NCBI GenBank assembly: GCA_044356295.1
Contig: JBIKWN010000054.1
Coordinates: 1-16,878 of the forward strand
Direction of reading: 5' to 3'
Origin: Bdellovibrionota bacterium
GTDB lineage: Bacteria; Bdellovibrionota_C; UBA2361; JBIKWN01
Length of the DNA: 16,878 nt
Both the position numbers and the translations under genes were made by a program. Shown here in pieces: positions 2-13,511 of the stretch; positions within the stretch are counted from its first letter, which is position 1, and the number at the start of each line of letters is the position of its first letter. The notes below the pieces were generated by a model. The model was not told where the DNA came from and did not search any database. It saw nothing but the letters and a program-made list of their open reading frames with translations.

Positions 2-736
2 TGCCCAGCAGCAGATCTGTTAAGAATCGGTGCCACTGCACTAGTCATTCAAGGCTTTGAGGAGCGATCTATCACTCCGCTCAGATACGATTACTTCAAG
101 TCGCTTGAGGACTTAACTAATATCAGCGAATCTAAATCAAATTGGTTGTTAGAAGGAACGCGCCCAAAACCAATGCTTGCTCTTTCTGTTCAAGAATATT
201 TCCTTAAGCAGGTAAAGAGTAATTTAAAAACGATGTCCCCACTGCGGCAGTTCTTTATTAATTTATGGGAAGAGGGTTTGTATCGACTTTCGCATAACGA
301 CCCAGATAAGTTAATTGGCTTTAACGACTGGGCAACGAAGCGTTGGCTCATTGGACTGCAGGCAAAAGAGAATCAGTGTAGTGTTTTTGATCCACCGTGC
401 CTTGCCATCGATAATGAATATCACGAAATGCAATTTGGTGTTGAATCACTTTTTGATTTCCTACAAAACGATGGAACTATTTTGCACCAAATTCCGCAAA
501 AGCATATCAATCATGCTGCCAAGTATCCTCCAAAAAACACTAGAGCACATGCTCGTTCAGTTTTATTAAAGGAGTTTCAAGACTCATGGAGTTTTAGATT
601 ATCAGTCGATTGGGATGAAGCTGTAATTAATCGAATTGGGAGCGATCAGTCAATGATTCCAATGCAAACTATTAGTATGCCAGACCCAAGAAATAGATAT
701 GTCTACAAAGCAAGAAAAGCAATCCGGCAGGTTTAA
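2..736 (+). CDS. Pup-protein ligase/deamidase (PafA/Dop) family protein, C-terminal portion (5' end outside window)
   Basis: The frame is open from position 2, upstream of the track's TTG at 146: CPAADLLRIGATALVIQGFEE resembles PafA/Dop 'LKxGxTxLVLxxxE'. Further family motifs follow in the expected order: NDWATKRWL (DWxxK), LAIDNEYHEM (DLxYHD), AAKYPPKNTRAHARS (PPxxTRAxxRG), SVDWD, ISMPDP. PafA versus Dop cannot be decided without the N-terminus. Confidence 0.85.
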   Translation, partial: CPAADLLRIGATALVIQGFEERSITPLRYDYFKSLEDLTNISESKSNWLLEGTRPKPMLALSVQEYFLKQVKSNLKTMSPLRQFFINLWEEGLYRLSHNDPDKLIGFNDWATKRWLIGLQAKENQCSVFDPPCLAIDNEYHEMQFGVESLFDFLQNDGTILHQIPQKHINHAAKYPPKNTRAHARSVLLKEFQDSWSFRLSVDWDEAVINRIGSDQSMIPMQTISMPDPRNRYVYKARKAIRQV

Positions 737-1398
737 TTTTTCTTACTAAATTTCAGATAAAGCAACCAAATACCCTGAAGAAGTAACATCAGAGCTAGGG
801 CACCTACAAACCAATAAACTATATATACTTTATTGGCAGATATCTCTGGATCAGGAGGTGGATATTTTAATACAACGCTTTTTGCGATCTTTTCAAGAAT
901 TGGAAGAGTACTAGCGAGGGCATCCCTGTCGTTTACCATCGTTAAAATGAAATATCTTTCTTTTGAAGGAAAAACAAACACCCCTGCTGCAACGGGACGC
1001 TGGTTGTGGACATACAGAATTTTTCCAAAGAAAACGTCACGACCCGCAAGTTTACGCTTTTCGCCGTACTCAGCCTCGGCATCAACAAAACCTACTGCTC
1101 GGTAACTATCAACTACTTCGTTTCGTATTTCACTCATCGTTCTGTCAGCGACTTTTGCATTACCAATCTGCTGCACCACCGTCACCGTAGGGAAATAGCC
1201 TTGATTTGGACGAGCGATAAAAATGACATCGCCTGAGTCTTTCTTTTCGATAGTGAATGAATCAGGGAAGCTAAGAGAGATTCCAAGCTTGTTATCCGAA
1301 TACGTTGTATCTTGAGAAACAGCCGAAAAAGCCACAAAAAACAGGGCAATTACAGGTAGATAGAGAGATACATATTTTTTAGGGTGAGTGAAAAACAT
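733..1398 (-). CDS. Hypothetical exported protein, PsbP/DcrB-like fold, with C-terminal TM anchor
   Basis: 221 aa. Signal-peptide-like N-terminus (…LFFVAFSAVS|QD). 'TYSDNKLGISLSFPDSF' is typical of PsbP-like starts, and 'YFILTM…LEKIAKSV' fits the fold's end. A Pro linker precedes a hydrophobic helix and basic tail (KFSKKN). The stop overlaps the convergent PafA-like stop in TTAA at 733-736. Confidence 0.55.
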   Translation of the reverse strand: MFFTHPKKYVSLYLPVIALFFVAFSAVSQDTTYSDNKLGISLSFPDSFTIEKKDSGDVIFIARPNQGYFPTVTVVQQIGNAKVADRTMSEIRNEVVDSYRAVGFVDAEAEYGEKRKLAGRDVFFGKILYVHNQRPVAAGVFVFPSKERYFILTMVNDRDALASTLPILEKIAKSVVLKYPPPDPEISANKVYIVYWFVGALALMLLLQGIWLLYLKFSKKN

Positions 1399-1516
1399 AG
1401 ACTCATGCTACCGATTTCAGACACAGAACCGCAACTTGTTTTTAAGCACAAGAGGAAAAAGGCGATTTTTCAAGGGAATTTTAATTATTTTTTATTTAAA
1501 TAACTTAAATTTTATA

Positions 1517-1546
1517 TTGCGCTCTTGTCACAGATCTCACTATTAT
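1517..1546 (+). promoter_or_regulatory. Candidate sigma70 promoter for the HU gene
   Basis: TTGCGC(1517-1522)-N18-TATTAT(1541-1546), preceded by a very AT-rich tract (about 1478-1516) resembling an UP element. Confidence 0.35.
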
Positions 1547-1609
1547 CGCGAAAATAGAGGTTTTTGCTCTGAAAAAATTTTAACGTTAACTCAAAGGAGA
1601 TTAAACATT

Positions 1610-2038
1610 ATGGCTAAAAAGCCAGTAAAAAAAGCAGCTCCTAAAAAAGCTGCACCAAAGAAAACCGTAAAAGCTGCTGCTCCTAAAGCTGCTGCTGCAA
1701 AACCTATCGTTCAGAAGGTACAAGTTGCGAGTCGTCCAAAAAATGGTTCGACTAACAGCTACACTTATTCTGAGTTCGTAGAGAATGTTAAGAACTATTG
1801 CGGTATTGAAAAGCGTGCTCAAGCAAAGACTATGGTTGATGATCTTGCATCATTCATCCGTGATTCTTTAAAGAAAGGTTACAAGCTTCCACTTCTTGGA
1901 CTTGGAAAACTTTATGTAAGAGAAAGCAAAGCTCGTATGGCACGTAACCCACAGACTGGTGAAGAAATTCGCATACCAGCTCGTAAGCGTGTACGTTTCA
2001 CTCCTGCTAAAGCACTTAAAGAGCATGTATTGAAATAA
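1610..2038 (+). CDS. hup: HU-family DNA-binding protein with N-terminal Lys/Ala/Pro-rich (histone H1-like) extension
   Basis: SD AAGGAGA at 1594-1600 precedes ATG 1610 (142 aa). HU/IHF arm motif 'GLGKLYVRESKARMARNPQTGEEIRIPARKRVRFTPAKALKE'. N-terminus MAKKPVKKAAPKKAAPKKTVKAAAPKAAAAKP. Confidence 0.9.
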   Translation: MAKKPVKKAAPKKAAPKKTVKAAAPKAAAAKPIVQKVQVASRPKNGSTNSYTYSEFVENVKNYCGIEKRAQAKTMVDDLASFIRDSLKKGYKLPLLGLGKLYVRESKARMARNPQTGEEIRIPARKRVRFTPAKALKEHVLK

Positions 2039-2281: not shown

Positions 2282-3643
2282 TTATTTAACGTCGCCCTCT
2301 TCTCCTCTTTTACGAAGAGAAAGTTTCAAATCTGTCCCAGAAAAAGGAAACGACTCACGGAGCGTGTTTTTAATATATCGTTGATACGAGAAATTAAGCT
2401 TATCCGGGTAGTTTAAAAACAATACGATTTCCGGCGGAGCGCTAGAAGCCTGTGTTGCAAAAAGTAGCTTAATTGGCTGCCCTCGAAATACAGGAGGTGG
2501 TTTACGCTCCCACGCTACCGAGAGAATCTTATTTAATTTCGAAGTTTGGATTCTGTGCGTCCAGTTTCCATATACTTCTTTTGCGGTTTCTAAAATAGAA
2601 GGACACCGTCTTCCGGTTTCTGCTGACACAAATAATATTGGAGCATAACGAGCGAACTTAAATACTTCGTAAATACCTTCAGTGTACTCTTTAACTGATT
2701 TATGATCTTTTTCAACAAGATCCCATTTATTCATTACCAAGATAAGCCCCCTGCCGCGTTCTTGGGCAAGACCTGCAATCTTTGCATCTTGTTCTGTCGG
2801 AAGTCCTTGAGAAGCATCCATCACCATCACGGCTACATCGCATGAGGCAAGAGAGGTTAATGCATGAAGATTCGCATAACGCTCAACTGTTTGTTCATCA
2901 ACTTTATTTTTCTTTCTCAGTCCTGCGGTATCTACAATCTGATACTTCTGACCATCACGTGTAATCATGATATCGATACTGTCTCTTGTTGTTCCTGCAA
3001 TATCTGAAGTGATTAATCGCTTCTCACCAAGGATACGATTGATAATAGAAGACTTTCCAACGTTTGGTTTACCAATAATGGCAAGTTTTATTGCGCCAGT
3101 TTTTGTTTTTTCGTGAGGTTCGATCTCTTGAGGATTAATATCAAGAATATCTCGTATTTCATCTACTAGCTCAGGAATCCCAACGCCGTGTGCTGCACTT
3201 ACAAAGTTAGCTTCAGGAACTCCGAGTCGGTAAAACTCATTTGCAGAAACTTGTACATCTGGCTTTTCACACTTATTGATAACGTAAATAACTTTCTTAC
3301 CAGATCGTCTCATTTTTTTAACGATCTCTTTATCATGGGCATGCGGGCCAGCAATTCCATCAAACAACACAATAGAAACATCAGCTTCTTCAATTGCAAT
3401 ACGTGCCTGCTCTTGTACTTCGTCTTCGAGCCCACTTCCTTCTTCACCGATCATTCCACCGGTATCGATCAAGGTAAAAGGAAACTCAAAGCGACTAACA
3501 TAGCCGTAATGTCTATCACGAGTAACGCCAGCAATATCTTCAACAATTGAAACTCGGTGACCAACAAGGGCATTAAATAATGTAGATTTTCCAACATTTG
3601 TTCTTCCCACAATTGCGATTGTAGGGATTTTTGTAAAGTTCAT
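2282..3643 (-). CDS. der: Ribosome biogenesis GTPase Der (EngA)
   Basis: Two tandem GTPase domains: GRTNVGKS/GVTRD/DTGG/NKCE and GKPNVGKS/GTTRD/DTAG/NKWD, plus a C-terminal KH-like domain (SYQRYIKNTLRESFPFSGT). Confidence 0.97.
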   Translation of the reverse strand: MNFTKIPTIAIVGRTNVGKSTLFNALVGHRVSIVEDIAGVTRDRHYGYVSRFEFPFTLIDTGGMIGEEGSGLEDEVQEQARIAIEEADVSIVLFDGIAGPHAHDKEIVKKMRRSGKKVIYVINKCEKPDVQVSANEFYRLGVPEANFVSAAHGVGIPELVDEIRDILDINPQEIEPHEKTKTGAIKLAIIGKPNVGKSSIINRILGEKRLITSDIAGTTRDSIDIMITRDGQKYQIVDTAGLRKKNKVDEQTVERYANLHALTSLASCDVAVMVMDASQGLPTEQDAKIAGLAQERGRGLILVMNKWDLVEKDHKSVKEYTEGIYEVFKFARYAPILFVSAETGRRCPSILETAKEVYGNWTHRIQTSKLNKILSVAWERKPPPVFRGQPIKLLFATQASSAPPEIVLFLNYPDKLNFSYQRYIKNTLRESFPFSGTDLKLSLRKRGEEGDVK

Positions 3644-3647
3644 AGCT

Positions 3648-4370
3648 CTATTTTTCCTTTTTAGCAGACATCTTTTTTAAGTGAGCAAGAGCCATTGATG
3701 CTGCCTCTGCTTGAGATGATTTTTTTGTTGCGCCTTTACCTGTTCCGAATACTTTATCGTTAATAAGTACAGAAGAAATAAAACTTGGTGCATGTTCAGG
3801 ACCAGCAACGGTATCAAGTCGATATATCGGTGCATCCATTGCTAAGGCATGAAGTACTTCTTGAAGTTCAGTCTTAGGATCCGTTGGAGAAACTTTCTTT
3901 ATCAGATCATAAAAGATGGTATCGATCACATCTTTTGCTTCGTTGTATCCACCGTCTCGGTAAATTGCTCCAAAAAGAGCTTCAACAACATCTGCTAGAA
4001 GTGATGGTCTTTCTTTTCCGCCAGTGCTTTCCTCACTCTTACTGACTCGTACAAACGCACTCAGCTCAAGAGAATGTGCAATTGAGGCAAGGTTCTGAGT
4101 GTTGACAAGAGCTGCTCTCATTTTTGAAAGATCCCCTTCTTTATGTTCGGGATACTCGTCTAACAGCAGATGAGCGATAGCAAGGTCTAATACTGCATCA
4201 CCAAGGTATTCAAGTCGTTCGTAGTCTTTTTTTTCGCCTCGTTGTTGTAGCGATCGATGCGTCAATGCAGACTCAAGAAGGTCTTTTCTTTTAAATCGAT
4301 ACCCAATCTTTTTTTGCAAAACATCGAGTGGCGACTTCTTAACTGATTTTTTGGCTTTAACTTCAGCCAT
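3648..4370 (-). CDS. rnc: Ribonuclease III
   Basis: ALTHRS, signature ERLEYLGDAVL, ADVVEALFGAIY, dsRBD DPKTELQE…GPEHAPSF…GKGATKKSSQAEAA. Likely start is ATG 4370 (MAEVKAKK; GGAGG upstream), overlapping the mnmA stop by 8 nt. Confidence 0.96.
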   Translation of the reverse strand: MAEVKAKKSVKKSPLDVLQKKIGYRFKRKDLLESALTHRSLQQRGEKKDYERLEYLGDAVLDLAIAHLLLDEYPEHKEGDLSKMRAALVNTQNLASIAHSLELSAFVRVSKSEESTGGKERPSLLADVVEALFGAIYRDGGYNEAKDVIDTIFYDLIKKVSPTDPKTELQEVLHALAMDAPIYRLDTVAGPEHAPSFISSVLINDKVFGTGKGATKKSSQAEAASMALAHLKKMSAKKEK

Positions 4371-5463
4371 TGACGATTCTTCCTCCCCCAAAAACCTCTT
4401 CGTTCTCTAGGTCATAGAGAACACATGCTTGACCTGGAGACACCGTGCTCCAGTCATCTAAGAAGCTTATTCTAGCAGTTTTATCCTCTGAAGGAACGAC
4501 GGTAACCTTAACTCCTTTATGTCGATGACGAAGCTGTGCGAGGGCTTCAAAGGCCACTCCTGCAGGACGATCGTACGGGGCAACCCAGCTTAGGTCCTTT
4601 ATGAGGAACTCCCTTCTTTCAAGTTCATGTTTTTCACCAGCTATAACGAGGTTGTTATATGGGTCAATTTCGAGGACATACAGTGGATTTTCGTGACCGC
4701 CAATTTTAAGCCCTCGTCTCTGTCCGACGGTAAATCTATCGATTCCATCATGAGTTGCTAATACTTTGCCCGAACGAGTAACTATTTGACCTTCAGGTTT
4801 TTTGCCTCCAATTGAGACTAGAAAATCTTGCACAGAACCAGAAACAAAACAGATATCTTGGCTCTCTGGTTTTGAATGAGTAGCAAGTCCTGCTTCTTTA
4901 GCAAGTTCTCGAACTTCTGGTTTTGTTAAATCGCCAACAGGAAATAGTGTTTCGGATAGTTCTGTTTGTTTTGAGCCGTAGAGAAAATAGCTTTGATCTT
5001 TCTCAAGATCTTTTCCTCGTAACAGATGCCAGCCTGCATCGCTTTGTTTAACACGCGCATAGTGACCCGTTGCAACATGAGAACAACCAAAAGCTTTTGC
5101 ACGATCTCTAAGCTCTCTGAATTTTACTTTATTATTGCACTCGATACACGGATTTGGTGTTTCGCCCCTCGCATATGTTTGAACGAAGGTATCAATAACT
5201 TCTTTTCTAAATGTTTTTTCAAAATCAAAAACGTAATAAGGAATACCCACTTTTGCAGCAACTTTGCGTGCATCAGTAAAATCATCAGGCGCGCAACATG
5301 TTGCACGAGTACAGCTTCCACCGTTATTTCGGTAATCCCAAACTTGCATAGAAATTCCAACACAAGGAATTCCTTGTTTAGCAAGAAGCAGTGCTGCTAC
5401 TGAAGAATCAACTCCACCTGACATTGCAACAACAGTACGATTTGGTTGTAAGCTTTCACTCAT
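4363..5463 (-). CDS. mnmA: tRNA-specific 2-thiouridylase MnmA
   Basis: PP-loop AMSGGVDSS, PNPCIECN, ATGHYAR, KDQSYFL, SQDICF, FTVGQRRGL, SPGQACVLY. Confidence 0.97.
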   Translation of the reverse strand: MSESLQPNRTVVAMSGGVDSSVAALLLAKQGIPCVGISMQVWDYRNNGGSCTRATCCAPDDFTDARKVAAKVGIPYYVFDFEKTFRKEVIDTFVQTYARGETPNPCIECNNKVKFRELRDRAKAFGCSHVATGHYARVKQSDAGWHLLRGKDLEKDQSYFLYGSKQTELSETLFPVGDLTKPEVRELAKEAGLATHSKPESQDICFVSGSVQDFLVSIGGKKPEGQIVTRSGKVLATHDGIDRFTVGQRRGLKIGGHENPLYVLEIDPYNNLVIAGEKHELERREFLIKDLSWVAPYDRPAGVAFEALAQLRHRHKGVKVTVVPSEDKTARISFLDDWSTVSPGQACVLYDLENEEVFGGGRIVNG

Positions 5464-6659
5464 TATGCTGCATCCTTTGCTTGCATTGTGTAATAAGCAG
5501 ACGCGATTCGCTTCACAGCCAACTCAATATCTTGTTCTGATAAATAATGATGAACACTAAAGCGAACAGTTTGAAGGGCATCTTTCTCAGAAAAACCATG
5601 AGCCAACAAGACTGGGGAAGCAGAGATTTTTCCAGAGCTACATGCCGAACCGCTGGATGCAAAAACACCATTTAAATCTAATGCAACAACCATGTCGCTG
5701 GTTGCAATTCCAGGAAAGAGAACACTTACGGTATTACCTATCGTGTTGTCTTTTGAGAAATTGATAACCACTTCAGGAATTGAGGCTTTTAGAAGTTCTG
5801 TAAAGCGTTTTGCATTCTCTCTTAGTTTGGCTTGACGAGAATCACCTTCATCGATCAAAGCTCTGACAGCTTCACCAAAAGAAAAAATTCCAATCACATT
5901 CTCTGTACCTGGACGTCTTCTTGTTTCTTGTGGTCCACCAACAAGAACTGGATCAATTGAAACACCGTCTTTCATAACGACGGCGCCTACTCCCGAAAGT
6001 CCACCAATTTTATGAGCACTAATACTCATATAATCAACGTCTAGTTCTTGGAAATCTATTTTTTGTTTACCAAAAAGTTGTACTGCATCAGTGTGACAAA
6101 GAATTTTAGGATTCTTTAACTTAGCTTCTTTAAAAATCTGTTGTATCGGAAGACATACACCTGTTTCGTTATTGACAGCCATTACTGAAATTAGTTTTGT
6201 TTTATCAGTAACTTTATTAATAAAATCTTCGACATGAAATTGTGAATCAGATCTTGGTGAAATCACCGACAGTGTAACGCCGAGTGATTCTAAGCGTTTT
6301 GCAACTTCCATAACGGCCGGATGTTCGACTGCTGAAATAATCAGTTCAGGAATAAATCCATTATGTCTTTCGGTATTGATGTAGCTCCAAAATGGAGACA
6401 TTAAAACTGAATTATTAGACTCAGTAGCACCAGAGGTAAAAGCAATAGATGCCTTTGGCGCTGAAATGGCCTGTCTAATCAAGTCTCTGGCGGTTTCAAT
6501 TATCATTCGAGATAATTGACCACCCTGATGTATTGAGCTTGGATTGAAAAAATCCATATCAAGGCAGTGCAAAGCCTTCCTGACCGAAGGGTGTATCGGA
6601 TAGGAGGCATTACTATCTAGATTAATAAACCCTGATTCAACAGGGGGACAAGTTGTCAT
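5463..6659 (-). CDS. iscS: Cysteine desulfurase, IscS/NifS group I
   Basis: NPSS, FTSGATESNN, VEHPAV, NNETG, HTDAVQ, PLP lysine SAHKIGG, catalytic SSGSACSS. TAATG stop/start overlap with mnmA. Confidence 0.9.
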   Translation of the reverse strand: MTTCPPVESGFINLDSNASYPIHPSVRKALHCLDMDFFNPSSIHQGGQLSRMIIETARDLIRQAISAPKASIAFTSGATESNNSVLMSPFWSYINTERHNGFIPELIISAVEHPAVMEVAKRLESLGVTLSVISPRSDSQFHVEDFINKVTDKTKLISVMAVNNETGVCLPIQQIFKEAKLKNPKILCHTDAVQLFGKQKIDFQELDVDYMSISAHKIGGLSGVGAVVMKDGVSIDPVLVGGPQETRRRPGTENVIGIFSFGEAVRALIDEGDSRQAKLRENAKRFTELLKASIPEVVINFSKDNTIGNTVSVLFPGIATSDMVVALDLNGVFASSGSACSSGKISASPVLLAHGFSEKDALQTVRFSVHHYLSEQDIELAVKRIASAYYTMQAKDAA

Positions 6660-6720
6660 AAAGAAGCCCTATTTTAGCAAAAGCACGGCCGTAAAGGAAA
6701 AGAGGCAAATCTATCTGTTT

Positions 6721-7440
6721 TTAACCTGTTTTCTGGGTACTTAGACGAGCGGATTCAGGAAGGAGCTTTCCATCGAGTAAAGATTCAATCTCTTCCATCG
6801 AACATGCCTCATCACGGTCAAGAGTTAAATATGGAATCTCTGCTGCTTTCAGAACGTCTTTCACAAATATTAAAGAGTCACTGTTAACCTTGGATTTAAC
6901 AGAGATTGCAAGTCGAATTTTCAGTGAATGCCTGTCAATCAGAACATACTGAACACCATGATTGCGAAGTCGTTTTAATAAATGAACTGAAACAGATTTT
7001 TCAGTTGTATCAACGAGTCGAGAAAGAACTACATTAGGGATGACTAGAAAACGACCTTTTGCATATTGATTTAGATTCAAGAATAGCGATTTATCTTTCG
7101 AGTCTAAAAAAGCTTTCTTAGCTGTTACTGGAATAATTATATCTTCTTCTGGTTCAGTAGGACCTTGATATGAGTCTTGGTAATGTTTCGTTATTTGAGG
7201 CGAATCAGTATCTGATAAAACAAAAGCTCCCCCCATCAGTGGTGGATGGTTTTCTTTTTGTAGTGCATCTTGATCCTTAATTTGAATTTCACTAATTGTT
7301 TTTTTAGGAACAGGAAGGATCATGTAGATAAGAAATATTGCTATGCCAAAGAATGTTACGATCCAGGACATTTGGATAAGTGACATACTCATCGCATATA
7401 AGAGCGAGGTCAAAACAATATCTTGAATCCTTTCGAGCAT
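6721..7440 (-). CDS. Membrane-anchored protein with degenerate DUF2726-like domain
   Basis: N-terminal hydrophobic segment(s) (…WIVTFFGIAIFLIYMILP). The C-terminal half follows the DUF2726 pattern: FL…LF..L…VIPNVVLSRLV…QYVLID…RLAISV…KDVLKAAEIPYL. Confidence 0.6.
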   Translation of the reverse strand: MLERIQDIVLTSLLYAMSMSLIQMSWIVTFFGIAIFLIYMILPVPKKTISEIQIKDQDALQKENHPPLMGGAFVLSDTDSPQITKHYQDSYQGPTEPEEDIIIPVTAKKAFLDSKDKSLFLNLNQYAKGRFLVIPNVVLSRLVDTTEKSVSVHLLKRLRNHGVQYVLIDRHSLKIRLAISVKSKVNSDSLIFVKDVLKAAEIPYLTLDRDEACSMEEIESLLDGKLLPESARLSTQKTG

Positions 7441-7554
7441 ATATCTTCACTAACCTATACAAAAAGTCCGCTCTACTCAATTTAAAAATATCCTAAATTG
7501 AAAAAATAACGTTAAAACAGTGGAATAACTTAAAAATTGGTCGATACTATCTAT

Positions 7555-7881
7555 GTGGCATCAGATATTAACCAGATATTACCAATTGCTCTTGGAGCAC
7601 TCGTAAACAACTCACAGCAAGCTTCAATTGCCGCATCTAGAACAAATGCTCTTCATTCTCCCCTAGCAAATATTCATCAGGTAACTCAGGCTATTGCTGC
7701 TCAGTCTGTCGCAAAAGTTAATGCTGACAAAAAAGAGCAAAGTGTTCAGATTCCGAAACGAAGCGAACCAAACTTTGGTGCGGACGACGATGAAAAGCCT
7801 CGTGATGAGGAGCAGTCCATTCAATCGAAAAGTAAGCCTCAATATAAAAAGGGCTCTGGTAATTTAGATTTAGTTGCCTAA
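7555..7881 (+). CDS. Small hypothetical protein ending GSGNLDLVA (YjfB/motility-associated-like C-terminal motif)
   Basis: ORF open 7537-7881, with probable start GTG 7555. Q/A-rich helical N-half, charged low-complexity C-half, terminal GxLDLVA. Confidence 0.65.
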   Translation: MASDINQILPIALGALVNNSQQASIAASRTNALHSPLANIHQVTQAIAAQSVAKVNADKKEQSVQIPKRSEPNFGADDDEKPRDEEQSIQSKSKPQYKKGSGNLDLVA

Positions 7882-7891
7882 TGTTTTTGAT

Positions 7892-8266
7892 ATGAGCCTT
7901 TTAAGAGTAAAAATTCTAGGAATTTTACTGATGGCAGTTTGTGTTTTTCAGTTCGTGATTAATTACTCACTGAGGCAGGCAAATACTTGGGATTCCAAAC
8001 CTGAGGATAAAGTCATAGTCGAAAAACTAGACCGAGAATCCAATCGGTCGTACGGGGTAAAAACAAAACTTTCCGAAATGCCAGAATGGCAATTTTACCG
8101 AATTAAAGGGTTATCACATACAAGCGCAGAGCACGTTTTTAAGAACCGAGATTTAATTCTAAAAGAAATTCGAAGTAGTAAGGATGCTGTGAAAGTGCTT
8201 ACTTCCTTTAAAGGAATCGGTGAGTCCACAGCACAGAAGCTGCTAGATCAAGTATCAATGGAATAG
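7892..8266 (+). CDS. Helix-hairpin-helix (ComEA-like) protein with N-terminal TM segment
   Basis: N-terminal hydrophobic helix (ILGILLMAVCVFQFVI). Two HhH-like motifs, RIKGLSHTSAEHV and SFKGIGESTAQKL. Likely ATG 7892, 10 nt after the previous stop. Confidence 0.7.
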   Translation: MSLLRVKILGILLMAVCVFQFVINYSLRQANTWDSKPEDKVIVEKLDRESNRSYGVKTKLSEMPEWQFYRIKGLSHTSAEHVFKNRDLILKEIRSSKDAVKVLTSFKGIGESTAQKLLDQVSME

Positions 8267-8498: not shown

Positions 8499-9359
8499 GT
8501 GGGCCTTTCGATTCGAACCAACATCGATTCACTCGTAGCGCAAGGAAACTTGCGAAGGGCTTCGAACGATCTTAGCAAAACATATGAAAGACTCTCATCT
8601 GGAATGAGAATCAATAGTGCAAGCGATGATCCCGCAGGATTAGCCTTGGCTTCTAAGCTTGAAGCTGATACGAGAATTGCATCAGTTGCTGTTCGAAATG
8701 CTAATGATGGAATATCAGTAACAAGTATTGCTGATTCTGCTCTTGATGAAATTAATAATTCTCTCTCTCGAATGCTTGAACTTGCGATGCAAAGCGCAAA
8801 TACAACGCAGACTACCGCTCAGCGTTCTAGTATCAACTTAGAATTCGTAGCGCTTGGTTCTGAAATTGATAGAATTTCAAGAACGGTTTCGTTTAACAAT
8901 ATTACACTTCTTTCAAATAGCAGAGATATTTCAATTCAAGTTGGAATGGACTCAACGTCGAACTCATTAATTACGATTCCAAGCGTTCGTGCAACGTTAG
9001 ACTCTCTTGGATTAGCAGCAACCGGTGGTAGTTCTCTTGTGTATTCGTTAATGACTACATCAGATGCAGGATCAGCATTTGCGTCTACTAATAGCCTTTC
9101 AGCTATTCAAAATGCTATGACAAGTCTGACAACAGTTCGAGGAACAATTGGGGCATCACAAAGTCGATTAACAAGAGCTCTAGGTTATCTAGAAGTTGCA
9201 AGAGAAAATTTTGCTGCAGCAGCTAGTAAGATCAGAGACATTGATGTTGCAGAAGAAACTGCAAAAATGGTAGCGCTGCAGGTTATTCAACAATCTGCTA
9301 CTGCAGTTATGGCTCAGGCGAACCAGACTCCACGGTTGGTCTTAGATTTGTTGAAGTAG
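8499..9359 (+). CDS. fliC: Flagellin (short, D0/D1-dominated)
   Basis: N-terminal IRTNI…ERLSSGMRINSASDDPAGL…RNANDGIS; C-terminal RGTIGASQSRL…SKIRDIDVAEE…AQANQTPRLVLDLL. 286 aa, GTG start, SD AAGGAG at 8482-8487. Confidence 0.96.
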   Translation: MGLSIRTNIDSLVAQGNLRRASNDLSKTYERLSSGMRINSASDDPAGLALASKLEADTRIASVAVRNANDGISVTSIADSALDEINNSLSRMLELAMQSANTTQTTAQRSSINLEFVALGSEIDRISRTVSFNNITLLSNSRDISIQVGMDSTSNSLITIPSVRATLDSLGLAATGGSSLVYSLMTTSDAGSAFASTNSLSAIQNAMTSLTTVRGTIGASQSRLTRALGYLEVARENFAAAASKIRDIDVAEETAKMVALQVIQQSATAVMAQANQTPRLVLDLLK

Positions 9360-9844: not shown

Positions 9845-11606
9845 GGTCCAAAGTATCGAATGGATATCTTTTATTTTCAAGTATTCGTTTGGAAATTGAA
9901 TCAGCTAGTTTGATATGAGCAACATCTTCATTCTTATCAAGCCTTCTTAAGTTTTGATTAATTCTTCTTTTGGCTTGTTGAGTAAAAATCTTTGCGATTT
10001 CAATTTCATCACGACATTCTTCTATCGTTGACTCTTCTATTTGGGTACTCACTCTTGAGATAACACATAAACAGGCAAAGAGATCTATTGCACAATCTGA
10101 AAGTCGCTTAGAAATAATTTGCGAGCCTACGATTTTTTTTCCAAGTTTTTTTACAACTTCTTCTGTTTTTGCAGAAAACGCAGCTACGTATTCTTCTAGA
10201 ATTTCTGATTCTTGCTGAAATACTTCGTGAGCTCGGTCGATTTTTGGACGGCCAAAAGAGGAAAACTCAGAAACTTTTTTTCCTGCATATTCCTTAAACA
10301 AGCCATACCCTTTAATCGGATGTGAAAAAACATCTTTAATCCCTTTCTGGAGATCTTTTAGGTAGGTGGCTATATCATTAATTGCTGAGAGCGCGATGTA
10401 TATTCGAAGTATTTCATTCGTACCTTCAAAGATAAGATTGATTCTAGAATCTCGAACAATCACTTCGTATGGATACTCTTTCATAAATCCATTTCCGCCT
10501 GCAATCTGAAGCGCTTCGTTACCAACGTACCATAGCGATTCACTGGCAAAGATCTTACTCATTGCAGCTTCAACAGAATAATCTTCAAAACCTGAATCAA
10601 TATAATATCCAACCATTGAAACGATACTTTCTGTGACATAGCACTGAATAGTCATCTGAGAGATCTTTTCTTTAATCAGTTGATACTCACTAATTGATTT
10701 CCCAAATTGTTTACGTTGATCCGCTTGATGAACAGCAGCAATAATGGATCGCTTCATAGCACCAACGCATCCACCTCCAAGCCCAGTTCGGCCATTATTA
10801 AGAATCGCCATTGCTACTTTAAAACCCTTGCCCTCTTCTCCAAGGACATTTTCTGCAGGAATTTTCATATCCTGAAAAACAATCGTTGAAGTTGCAGATG
10901 CACGAATTCCCATTTTATCTTCTTTGACGCCATGAGTAAGACCAGCGCCTCGCTCAACAATAAATCCAGTAATTTTTCCAGCGTCGCTATCAGTTCTGGC
11001 AAAGACTGTGAAAAAATCAGCAATCGGTCCATTAGTTATCCAAAGTTTTTCTCCGTTTAAAACAAAAGATCCATCAGATTGTTTAACTGCAGTAGTTTTA
11101 ATTGAAGCAGCGTCAGAGCCAGCACCAGGTTCTGTTAAACAAAAAGCTGCAATCATTTCACCTGTTGAAAGTTTGGGAAGATATTTTTCTTTTTGGGCAT
11201 CAGTTCCAAAAAGTAACAGTCCCTTCATCCCGATCGAGCTATGGGCACCAACTGTAAGACTTGTTGAGCCATCATAGGTTGTGACTTGCTGGAGCACTCG
11301 TGAGTACCCTGAGTTTGATAAACCAATACCTCCGTATTCTTCTGGAATAATTAAACCAAACAGACCTAATTCTTTTAGTTCATTTATATAGTCACTCGGC
11401 TGGCCCCCTTTTTGGTCATACTCCCGAAAATGAAGCGCCTTAGATTGCATAAACTTATCAACGGACTCCAGAACCATTGAAATGGTTTCTTGCTCTTGTT
11501 TTGAAATTTTGGGAAACGGAAAAAAATTATCTTGTTCTACTTTTCCAAGAAAAAGTAATTTTGCAGCTGATAAATCAAGTTTAGGGGGGTGCGTAGTGTC
11601 CTTCAT
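9837..11606 (-). CDS. Acyl-CoA dehydrogenase, long form (VLCAD/ACAD9-like)
   Basis: IPEEYGGIG, AAFCLTEPGAGSDA, LNGEKLWITNG, KMGIRASAT, RKQFGK, ALQIAGGNGF, IFEGTNEI, plus a C-terminal extension typical of roughly 590-aa members. Confidence 0.93.
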   Translation of the reverse strand: MKDTTHPPKLDLSAAKLLFLGKVEQDNFFPFPKISKQEQETISMVLESVDKFMQSKALHFREYDQKGGQPSDYINELKELGLFGLIIPEEYGGIGLSNSGYSRVLQQVTTYDGSTSLTVGAHSSIGMKGLLLFGTDAQKEKYLPKLSTGEMIAAFCLTEPGAGSDAASIKTTAVKQSDGSFVLNGEKLWITNGPIADFFTVFARTDSDAGKITGFIVERGAGLTHGVKEDKMGIRASATSTIVFQDMKIPAENVLGEEGKGFKVAMAILNNGRTGLGGGCVGAMKRSIIAAVHQADQRKQFGKSISEYQLIKEKISQMTIQCYVTESIVSMVGYYIDSGFEDYSVEAAMSKIFASESLWYVGNEALQIAGGNGFMKEYPYEVIVRDSRINLIFEGTNEILRIYIALSAINDIATYLKDLQKGIKDVFSHPIKGYGLFKEYAGKKVSEFSSFGRPKIDRAHEVFQQESEILEEYVAAFSAKTEEVVKKLGKKIVGSQIISKRLSDCAIDLFACLCVISRVSTQIEESTIEECRDEIEIAKIFTQQAKRRINQNLRRLDKNEDVAHIKLADSISKRILENKRYPFDTLDHG

Positions 11607-11690
11607 ACACCTATTCTATCCTTACTTTTACCGGTTGAGGTATTGGATTTTATTATGAGATTCTATAACAATACCCCCTGTTTGATATTT

Positions 11691-13511
11691 ATGCCAAGTG
11701 CCAGAACAACACAGCGATCCTCTGTTATAGCTAGAATTAAAGCATTCTCACTTGTCTCGGTTTTTTTCAGTTGTTTACAATCCCCGCTCTTTACCCTAGC
11801 GGATCCACAGGATCCTAAGGATATAGTCTACACAAAAGATGGAATTGAAAATCTTGAAAAGTTCGAGGGCAAAACTATACGAAATATTACTATTAACGTT
11901 ACAGATGTATTCGAAGAACCTACCGATAATCGATTATTCGCTACTGCAAATTCGATCAAAATTAATACGAATGACTCAGTAGTTCGAAGGGAATTACTCT
12001 TTAAAGAAGGCGATACCTTTAGTGCTTTCCGAATAAAGGAATCTGAAAGAGTACTCAGACAGCTCCGTTTCAATCGTGATCCAATCATTACCCCAAAAAT
12101 GGTTGGCGATTATGTCGATATTGATGTCAAAACTCAGGATACGTGGACGTTAATTCCTACTTTTAATTATTCATCTGGTGATGGTTCGGGTTCAAAGAGT
12201 GTTGGAATCTCTGAGTCTAATATATTAGGTCTAGGAAAACGTGCTGAGCTACTCGTCTCAGACGAAGAAAACCGACGAACCTTTGAAGGGATCTATGACG
12301 ATTGGAGAGTAATGAACTCAAAGGTTCGAATGGTTCTCGCCAATTTTTACAGAGCTGACGGAAATAGATTTGTAGGCTTGATTGAGTCTCCTTATAGAAC
12401 CTTACTTGATAAACACTCTTGGTCATTTGATGCTGATATTGCTGATAACATAGGGAAACTCTGGTCCGGAGGGAATGAACGTTTTATTTATCGTCGTAAT
12501 TCTGTTGACCTAGGCGCAAATTACAGCTGGAGCCTTGGACCTCGTGAACATCAAGAAAGAATTACGCTCGGTCTTGATTATGAAGATAGCGAATTCAAAC
12601 TTCCAACTGCACAAGATTATATTGATGCAAATGTCGATCAAAGTGACATCGTTGAAGATCCGACTTTATTAGCTAAAAATCGAAAATTTGTTGGGCCACG
12701 ATTTTCTTATGAATCGCTTGAACCTCGTTTTATTCAGATGAGGTATATTGATAGGTTCGATCGTCCTGACGATTACGATATCGGAAGAAACTTTAGCTTC
12801 TCTGGAACTACGGCATTCAGCGAACTTGGCTCAATAGAAGACGCCTTGCTTTTCAACCTAAATCAAACAGCAGGAATGAAATTCAGTAGTTCATCATTTC
12901 TACGTGGTGAACTTGGTTTTTCTGGAAGAAATACGTACGGGGATTTTGAAAACACTCTTTTTCGTGCTGAAAGCAAATATTACAACGTACTTGGTGATGT
13001 AAGAGTTAAAGATATCTTTCTTGGTAAACATACATTGGCATTCGGTTATTCACTCGATTTTGCAAATAAACTTGATCAAGATAGAGAATTCCTTTTAGGT
13101 GCCGATTCGGGGCTTCGCGGATATGACTCTCGAACGTTTACTGGTGATAAACGTTTTATCTTAAATATAGAAGATAGAGTTCACATTGCAGAGGATGTTT
13201 GGAAGCTCATGAGCTTTGGTGCAGCAGCTTTTGTCGATGTTGGTGGCTCAACGTATGATTCATTTAGCTCTTTATTTAAAGAGGACCTCTATGGTGATGC
13301 AGGTATAGGACTTCGTTTTGCTTTTCCTCGATCCTCTGGTGGACGAACGCTTCGAATCGATTTTGCAGTTCCATTCAGAGATGGGCAAGACGGCTCAAAC
13401 GCATATGAAGTTCGTTTGATTTTTGCAGGTGGTCAAACTTTTAGCGCGAGAACCCGAAGCGAGCAAATCGGTACTCAGAAAGCTAATGTTGAAGTTGGAA
13501 CTGACCGCTAA
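11691..13511 (+). CDS. Omp85/BamA-TamA superfamily outer membrane protein (POTRA + beta-barrel)
   Basis: POTRA-like 'TNDSVVRRELLFKEGD…ESERVLRQL', 'ESNILGLG', L6 motif GLRGYD, 'AAFVDVG…DAGIGLRF…LRIDFAVP'. Start uncertain (ATG 11655 or 11691). Signal-like FSLVSVFFSCLQSPLFTLA. Confidence 0.85.
   Translation: MPSARTTQRSSVIARIKAFSLVSVFFSCLQSPLFTLADPQDPKDIVYTKDGIENLEKFEGKTIRNITINVTDVFEEPTDNRLFATANSIKINTNDSVVRRELLFKEGDTFSAFRIKESERVLRQLRFNRDPIITPKMVGDYVDIDVKTQDTWTLIPTFNYSSGDGSGSKSVGISESNILGLGKRAELLVSDEENRRTFEGIYDDWRVMNSKVRMVLANFYRADGNRFVGLIESPYRTLLDKHSWSFDADIADNIGKLWSGGNERFIYRRNSVDLGANYSWSLGPREHQERITLGLDYEDSEFKLPTAQDYIDANVDQSDIVEDPTLLAKNRKFVGPRFSYESLEPRFIQMRYIDRFDRPDDYDIGRNFSFSGTTAFSELGSIEDALLFNLNQTAGMKFSSSSFLRGELGFSGRNTYGDFENTLFRAESKYYNVLGDVRVKDIFLGKHTLAFGYSLDFANKLDQDREFLLGADSGLRGYDSRTFTGDKRFILNIEDRVHIAEDVWKLMSFGAAAFVDVGGSTYDSFSSLFKEDLYGDAGIGLRFAFPRSSGGRTLRIDFAVPFRDGQDGSNAYEVRLIFAGGQTFSARTRSEQIGTQKANVEVGTDR

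Follow-up and report, generated by a model that had tools for sequence, protein, structure and literature searches.

What does an enzyme of the PafA and Dop family do in a flagellated, diderm bacterium outside the Actinobacteria, and does a protein-tagging system accompany it? The question is raised by a 16,878-nucleotide (nt) stretch of DNA, hereafter the window, which is the whole of contig JBIKWN010000054.1 in assembly GCA_044356295.1 of a freshwater (lake-water) Bdellovibrionota bacterium. Its first bases carry the downstream part of a gene of the Pup_ligase family (PF03136), which an earlier note, made from the letters alone, had read as a possible last gene of a pupylation-like or UBact-like operon. 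To our knowledge, the only established roles of PafA and Dop are those of writer and eraser of Pup in the Pup-proteasome system. Here we find that the gene stands alone, in a genome in which our searches recovered no Pup, Dop, Mpa or 20S proteasome, and that, judging from its sequence, it probably encodes an orphan PafA-type ATP-dependent carboxylate-amine ligase whose donor and acceptor would be other than those of a recognisable Pup system.

The frame in the window is open from base 2, encodes 244 amino acids (aa) and ends with a TAA at 734-736. Over bases 2-733 it matches PF03136 with 87.6 bits, against a gathering cut-off of 25 bits, and covers profile positions 239-439 of 441. The window corresponds to G000:C33:1-16878 of the source genome (G000; 2.96 Mb in 128 contigs, estimated to be 93.6% complete), such that its left edge is a true contig end. 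A PF03136 search of this genome recovered exactly one further piece, at the 3' end of contig C32 (4,019 nt), which covers profile positions 72-228. Further, in tblastn searches with P0001, a metagenomic homologue of 451 aa that is 79% identical to the window part, residues 1-200 align on C32 and residues 208-451 on C33, with only seven residues (201-207), which probably correspond to VLNDPSL as read in P0001 and P0002, unplaced, and neither the profile search nor tblastn found a second copy or a missing piece on any other contig of G000. Because the two profile halves and the P0001 alignment leave only seven residues missing, we conclude that the two pieces are parts of one gene of about 449 codons, interrupted where the assembly lacks some 20 nt (19-21 nt, about 7 codons). 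The C32 part begins with an ATG and contributes the motifs GTEQE, NGGKAYLD, FYEVATPE, HENY, HQRA and RLHH, and there is no stop codon in either half. A genome of the same genus (G072) has, at L006:7944-9344, an uninterrupted ORF (open reading frame) of 466 aa behind the same DUF1653 neighbour, and strain variants in two other sequencing runs changed 17 and 11 codons, of which 11 and 7, respectively, are synonymous, hinting at purifying selection. The gene is probably intact. The contig of a possible source run breaks off at base 1 of the window, and that of an independent run from lake water reaches only 7 nt further; since the public runs do not bridge the gap, a lesion could lie within it. 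A 34-nt stretch inside the gene (window 478-511) recurs, with 3 differences and 2 gaps, on longer contigs of three runs between unrelated flanks, and may be a short shared element or a chance resemblance.

Searches for the partners of a Pup system returned consistently negative results. PF00227, which covers both 20S proteasome subunits and HslV, has no match in G000; the same search was positive in 11 of 14 control genomes (10-11 of 14 when all four carrier genomes named below are considered). Likewise, PF05639 (Pup) has no match in G000 at E<=10; the best match of the Mpa model there is a 614-aa frame at the level of a generic AAA protein (140 bits versus a cut-off of 505); and there is no second PafA/Dop (Pup_ligase) gene in this genome. 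Among 20,689 small ORFs of G000 only 16 end in G[GSA][QE] or [GSA]G[QE], none of them Pup-like, and of 10,398 frames of at least 60 aa two end in GG[QE]. A hidden Markov model (HMM) built from the Pup-like ORFs of two metagenomic loci, L012 and L013 (see below), reached a best E of 0.15 in G000. No Mpa, Dop, 20S subunit or modifier is encoded on C32, scanned over all its 4,019 nt, or on C33. A UBact-type locus, with an R[ST]G[EQ] modifier next to mpa, dop and prcBA, was not found either, the motif being that of the earlier note and no UBact-specific HMM having been used. Thus the tagging genes that the note had expected upstream are found neither there nor elsewhere in G000 by profile, paralogue or small-ORF searches. 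The family is sparse in the phylum: PF03136 matches 4 of 124 Bdellovibrionota genomes (G000, G072, G035 and G100), in a single copy each, and in the latter three, as in G000, PF00227, PF05639 and an Mpa-grade AAA protein are missing. The completeness of the four carriers is 86-96%. With no PF00227 match in any of the four, these genomes seem to lack both HslV and the 20S proteasome.

The assignment to the Pup_ligase family is firm, while the protein is neither of the two named equivalogs. TIGR03686 (PafA) gives 54.4 and 64.0 bits for the two halves and 139.2 for P0001, against a cut-off of 551.3; TIGR03688 (Dop) gives 52.3 and 60.3 bits for the halves and 146.9 for P0001, against a cut-off of 492.3. 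Of 95 family representatives scored on these models, one exceeds the Dop cut-off and one the PafA cut-off, and the clade that contains the window protein is among the lowest scorers. The best sequence matches in the PDB are PafA (4B0T/4BJR, E=3e-8) and Dop (9CKU/4B0R/5LRT). To place the protein we used a tree of 75 rows from an IQ-TREE quick search and a second one, by FastTree, with 72 metagenome loci added, both with supports from the Shimodaira-Hasegawa-like approximate likelihood ratio test (SH-aLRT). A 20-row group (SH-aLRT 98) takes in 9 of the 11 labelled rows, namely the equivalogs of PafA and Dop together with most of the near-equivalogs. The window protein belongs to a separate 48-row group (SH-aLRT 97), which lacks any PafA or Dop equivalog on both trees. 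Within it, an eight-row clade (SH-aLRT 98) unites the window protein with P0001, P0002, P0009, P0010, P0012 and the copies of G072 and G100; the branch that leads to the G035 copy is very long (2.09). In approximately unbiased (AU) tests, forcing the clade together with PafA costs 66 log-likelihood units (p=0.046) and forcing it together with Dop costs 89 (p=0.031), both results being marginal and the groups having been named after the tree was seen. Members of the clade are 31-79% identical and keep the catalytic set. On the PafA/Dop side of the second tree, 21 metagenomic loci (L021, L023, L027, L029, L037, L053 and 15 more) form a tight clade on a very long branch (1.43), with proteins mostly of about 690-740 aa that may represent a large fused or extended form.

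A comparison of conserved positions in an alignment of 53 family members showed that the clade keeps all 13 invariant columns. Retained residues include G20, E22, E24, N58, G59, Y63, D65, E71, E76, H118, E119, N120 and Y121, followed by Q160, R161, R177, R183, R195 and H197 and, in the C-terminal part, a Trp, the Tyr-His pair and the TRAxxR residues. Alignments, by HMMER for the first three items, relate several of these to characterized positions (the statements from the literature given here and below come from extracts of the sources): 1) D65 aligns with D64 of Corynebacterium glutamicum PafA, the conserved loop aspartate that is proposed to be the catalytic base (PMC3511204), for which a D64N variant is named in PMC8599861 and which is mutated in the structure 4BJR. 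2) R177 aligns with PafA R201, described as forming a salt bridge with the C-terminus of Pup. 3) R183 and H197 correspond to R227 and H241 of Dop, described as holding the phosphate. 4) The equivalent of Dop R90, described as contacting the alpha-phosphate, is Lys61 here. 5) The basic sites R137, R218, R442 and K444 of C. glutamicum PafA, reported in PMC10465538 to serve in substrate recognition, are not kept by a manual alignment; R442 and K444 are also missing in P0139, a PafA equivalog, and we draw nothing from their absence. The linker before strand beta2 comprises about 32 residues that are unconserved within the clade and have pLDDT values of 54-68 in a model of P0001. It is no Dop-loop, which according to PMC8599861 consists of 40-65 conserved residues and is present in all Dop orthologues; the same paper holds that ligase and depupylase are not distinguishable by a few residues.

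Two positions stand out against this background of conservation. Where 48 of 53 members have His, the window protein has Phe69, and where 42 of 53 have Arg, it has Leu140; both lie on the C32 part, and the pair is common to four to five diverged inner members of the clade. Judging from their strand positions, both residues would face the active site, and the replacements suggest a remodelled donor pocket. Several statements of the earlier note can be placed here. It had described a frame open from the window edge with the ordered motifs LRIGAT, DNEYHE and TRAHARS and had taken the protein for a divergent PafA/Dop-family enzyme of a non-actinobacterial flagellated diderm; both descriptions hold, the second through PF03136, NCBIfam, PDB and Foldseek matches. 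The substitutions it stressed in the three motifs are indeed present, but these columns vary elsewhere in the family, and the unusual changes are instead Phe69 and Leu140. Among the features it had advised looking for are a Pup_ligase profile and structural match, obtained for PF03136 with both halves and for the fold with the P0001 model; the N-terminal GhExE motif, found as GTEQE on C32; and the Dop-loop, which is absent.

An AlphaFold model of P0001, computed with a 53-row alignment, has a pLDDT of 93.6 and a pTM of 0.93. Its ten best PDB matches in Foldseek are all Dop or PafA (TMq 0.69-0.83), and the next are YbdK (TMq 0.45-0.46) and glutamate-cysteine ligases (about 0.45). The P0001 homologue is thus predicted to adopt the two-domain fold of pupylation-type enzymes, with a glutamine-synthetase-like beta-sheet cradle and a C-terminal domain of about 70 aa. 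Set against PafA (TIGR03686; 4B0T/4BJR), the window protein shares the Pfam family, the size (about 449 versus about 450-490 aa), the lack of a Dop-loop, the predicted two-domain fold (TMq 0.75-0.80, P0001 model) and the GxExE, catalytic Asp, HENY and QR elements together with the R201-equivalent Arg and the phosphate-binding Arg and His. It differs in being only 22-29% identical to the PafA equivalog P0139, in lying on the other side of the tree, in having Phe and Leu for the near-invariant His and Arg, in the N-terminal extension (FPSxLxxExW) peculiar to its clade and in residing in a genome without Pup, Dop, Mpa or 20S. With Dop (TIGR03688; Acidothermus cellulolyticus 4B0R/5LRT/7OXY) it has in common the family, the predicted fold (TMq 0.81-0.83), the aspartate and the Arg and His that hold the phosphate, whereas it lacks both the Dop-loop and the DEPHAD His, and its genome offers no depupylation substrate. 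YbdK/GCS2 and the gamma-glutamylcysteine ligases share the glutamine-synthetase-like cradle and the acyl-phosphate chemistry, but at a TMq of about 0.45 and an identity of 8-14%, and they have no pupylation-type C-terminal domain.

A link to a Pup-type setting comes from metagenomic relatives. A metagenome scan with generic patterns retained 80 loci, about 26-36% identical by their best segment, and the 72 with full-length ORFs were those added to the second tree; 8 of these 72 fall on the window's side. Two of the eight, L012 (Ga0209541_10004980) and L013 (Ga0190334_1000016), are clusters of Mpa-like, Dop-like, Pup-like and ligase genes, in which the ligase of the window's side lies directly behind the Pup-like ORF. 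The Mpa-like AAA proteins score 406 bits (L012) and 397 bits (L013) on TIGR03689 and the Dop-like proteins 412 and 410 bits on TIGR03688. The Pup-like ORFs, of 56 or 58 aa, end in GGQ or SAQ; Pfam recognises that of L012 only at E=0.045 and does not match that of L013. The ORFs scanned around the two ligases, out to about 6 kb, include no proteasome gene. The two ligases are about 31-33% identical to P0001 and share with the window protein the side of the tree and similar sub-threshold PafA and Dop scores, but unlike it they keep the His and the Arg and sit in Pup-like/Dop-like/Mpa-like clusters, of which the window gene has none. In L015, L016, L019 and L020, also on the window's side, the ligase genes stand alone. 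Hence, this side of the family holds both ligase-slot enzymes of Pup-type systems and orphans, and were the root on the PafA and Dop side, the orphans would be derived. The neighbours of the L012 and L013 clusters include DUF357, a family-B DNA polymerase, Ocnus and an amino-acid-kinase-fold protein, families which we take to be typical of archaea; to find a Pup system in a host other than a bacterium would be noteworthy.

The start codon lies on C32 at position 3425, only 96 nt from a DUF1653 gene (77 aa) on the opposite strand, beyond which C32 encodes a secreted protein of 136 aa, a DUF1328 protein, a BON protein and small ORFs. A single sigma-70-like site is found ahead of the start codon, but such sites are no more frequent than expected by chance. 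Downstream, as the earlier note had recognised, the gene collides with a convergent minus-strand ORF, which encodes a membrane-type protein of 221 aa and overlaps the stop codon by 4 nt, and neither flank has space for a modifier gene. Because of the divergent DUF1653 upstream, the convergent ORF downstream and this lack of space, the gene looks monocistronic rather than the tail of the plus-strand operon that the note had proposed. DUF1653 itself was considered as a partner and rejected: it adjoins the gene only in G000 and G072, lies on another contig in G100, is absent from G035, and occurs in 38 of the 124 phylum genomes as against 4 for the ligase. The convergent gene was rejected on similar grounds, the genes at this place being unrelated among G000, G072 and G100. 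Comparison of the carrier loci revealed no neighbour that is conserved beyond the genus, and the defence-protein models of PADLOC-DB recovered 0 families for the 6 of 6 proteins scanned. In G035 the divergent 522-aa homologue (region L011:8809-15017) is followed by an aspartate kinase gene and then by genes for an HhH protein and a NifS-like aminotransferase and by mnmA; these latter three match genes of the window, where they lie on the opposite strand. This loose synteny hints at an old vertical residence of the gene with many losses.

On the reading that we favour, which was the fallback of the earlier note (an enzyme of the ligase fold that stands alone and acts on a new substrate) and is the one that the evidence favours, the enzyme would work as follows. 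ATP and Mg2+ would be bound in the beta-sheet cradle, as in PafA; the side-chain carboxylate of a glutamate-like donor would be phosphorylated to an acyl-phosphate; and an amine, helped by the loop residue Asp65, would attack the activated carboxyl, so that an amide or isopeptide bond results. A ligase appears a better assignment than an amidase in view of the missing Dop-loop and of a side of the tree that includes the ligase-slot members of L012 and L013. Since Pup, Dop, Mpa and the proteasome are all missing from this lineage, the donor would be something other than a recognisable Pup and the product something other than a proteasome degron, and a non-Pup substrate is accordingly what the sequence data lead us to infer. 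Several observations weigh against this interpretation. The patchy spread over the phylum fits a gene under loss; the 19-21 nt between C32 and C33 have never been seen and could contain a frameshift or an insertion; at 93.6% completeness, a partner gene could be unassembled; the changes to Phe and Leu could mean weakened or lost catalysis instead of a new specificity; full-length clade members score slightly higher on the Dop model than on the PafA model, as P0001 does; and the trees are unrooted products of quick and FastTree searches, with AU results that are marginal for groups defined post hoc.

Some of these observations would be accounted for by other explanations. The preference for the Dop model, seen in every full-length member of the clade, would follow if the protein were a Dop-like amidase that keeps ADP and phosphate bound and hydrolyses gamma-glutamyl amides or deamidates a C-terminal glutamine; the best Foldseek matches are Dop structures, the equivalents of Dop R227 and H241 and the aspartate are conserved, and a few residues cannot separate the two activities, as PMC8599861 has it. 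We regard this as quite unlikely, given that the loop described there for all Dop orthologues is missing, that the DEPHAD His, which in Dop (H231) stacks with the Trp of the Dop-loop, is replaced by Leu, that L012 and L013 pair an enzyme of this side of the tree with a separate Dop-like gene, that the AU test disfavours a union with Dop, and that the genome has nothing to depupylate. The rarity of the gene, the long branch of the G035 copy, the loss of two near-invariant polar residues and the unseen gap would instead fit a relic, decaying or catalytically dead after the loss of a Pup system, or broken within the gap. This too is unlikely: both halves are open and the 13 invariant columns of the 53 members are all kept, the catalytic set persists across a clade as diverged as 31-79% identity, strain variants are mostly synonymous, the Phe/Leu pair looks, from its recurrence in four to five diverged members, like a fixed functional state, and the loose synteny with G035 (mnmA, nifS-like and HhH genes) suggests long vertical retention.

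That the protein is the ligase of a complete Pup-like or UBact-like system, with partners that are encoded elsewhere, too divergent or unassembled, is highly improbable. An incomplete genome in 128 contigs, the difficulty of detecting small disordered modifiers, to which the Pup-like ORFs of L012 and L013 testify, and the presence of same-side relatives in such clusters speak for it; but the same set of components (20S/HslV, Pup, Mpa-grade AAA, second paralogue) is missing from all four carriers, no neighbour is kept beyond the genus, and neither the 16 small ORFs with fitting ends nor the HMM from L012 and L013 gave a Pup-like candidate.

The features of the gene and of its surroundings are collected in the table. 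The flagellin gene and the low GC content (0.389) on which the earlier note relied for its view of the host are borne out, but its Omp85 protein shows only one weak POTRA match (E=0.0016, below the cut-off), with no Omp85/Bac_surface_Ag domain match in Pfam. The ORF at 1388-2038 encodes an HU/IHF-type DNA-binding domain (residues 126-214) after a Lys/Ala/Pro-rich, histone-H1-like tail, and its true start is probably an ATG near 1610 instead of the GTG at 1388. In G072, a 682-aa flagellin has Flagellin_N and Flagellin_C ends that enclose FG-GAP repeats.

Table. Coordinates of the Pup_ligase gene, its motifs, neighbouring features and related loci (positions without a prefix are those of the window)
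Feature	Position	Strand	Basis or remark
N-terminal part of the gene, 198 codons from ATG, open to contig end	C32:3425-4018		PF03136, 83.6 bits
C-terminal 244 codons and TAA of the ~449-aa Pup_ligase gene	2..736	+	PF03136, tblastn of P0001
LRIGAT (consensus LKxGTT), start of long helix after beta-sheet cradle	20..37	+	Column varies within family
DWATK, with Trp invariant in 53/53 aligned family members	326..340	+	Alignment
DNEYHE, with Tyr-His pair nearly invariant in family	410..427	+	Alignment
Approximate C-terminal domain, specific to pupylation-type enzymes	527..733	+	Layout after PMC3511204; secondary structure from P0001 model
TRAHARS, with T, R, A and R conserved	539..559	+	Alignment
VDWD, with invariant Trp	605..616	+	Alignment
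Convergent membrane-type ORF	733-1398	-	
HU/IHF-type domain ORF	1388-2038	+	
Genes matching HhH, NifS-like and mnmA genes of G035	4363-8266		
Flagellin	8499-9359		
ORF with weak POTRA match	11589-13511	+	Pfam
Mpa-like, Dop-like, Pup-like, ligase cluster	L012:4085-9143		
Ligase of L012	L012:7875-9143		
Mpa-like, Dop-like, Pup-like, ligase cluster	L013:4090-9278		
Ligase of L013	L013:7827-9278		
Flagellin with FG-GAP repeats, G072	L006:5571-7619	-	

The clade is rare. A scan of a species-level genome collection recovered a single relative, that of G072 from the same genus, and a profile-free search of 1.84 billion representatives gave 432 matches at E<=1e-3, only 4 of them at E<=1e-30; among these representatives the window clade amounts to about six clusters at 50% identity, from uncultured genomes only. 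In the open-access papers and preprints searched we found no work on PafA/Dop homologues in Bdellovibrionota or Saccharibacteria. This rarity and the restriction to uncultured genomes limit the practical weight of the finding. As to what the orphan ligase might do, one may speculate that it is the core of a proteasome-independent conjugation system, in which a descendant of a Pup ligase, left with a remodelled pocket after the loss of Pup, Dop, Mpa and the proteasome, would link lysines of the cell's own or possibly of prey proteins to another peptide or protein or to a small molecule resembling glutamate, a proposal that we put forward as doubtful. The placement on the tree is relevant to the spread and decay of pupylation outside the Actinobacteria; on their side of the family the orphans stand together with ligases from Mpa-Dop-Pup clusters that are not actinobacterial. 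If the orphan-ligase interpretation is true, the ligase scaffold would have a second use outside the Pup-proteasome system, and the protein would offer a tractable, soluble, single-gene target for finding what else this chemistry can join.

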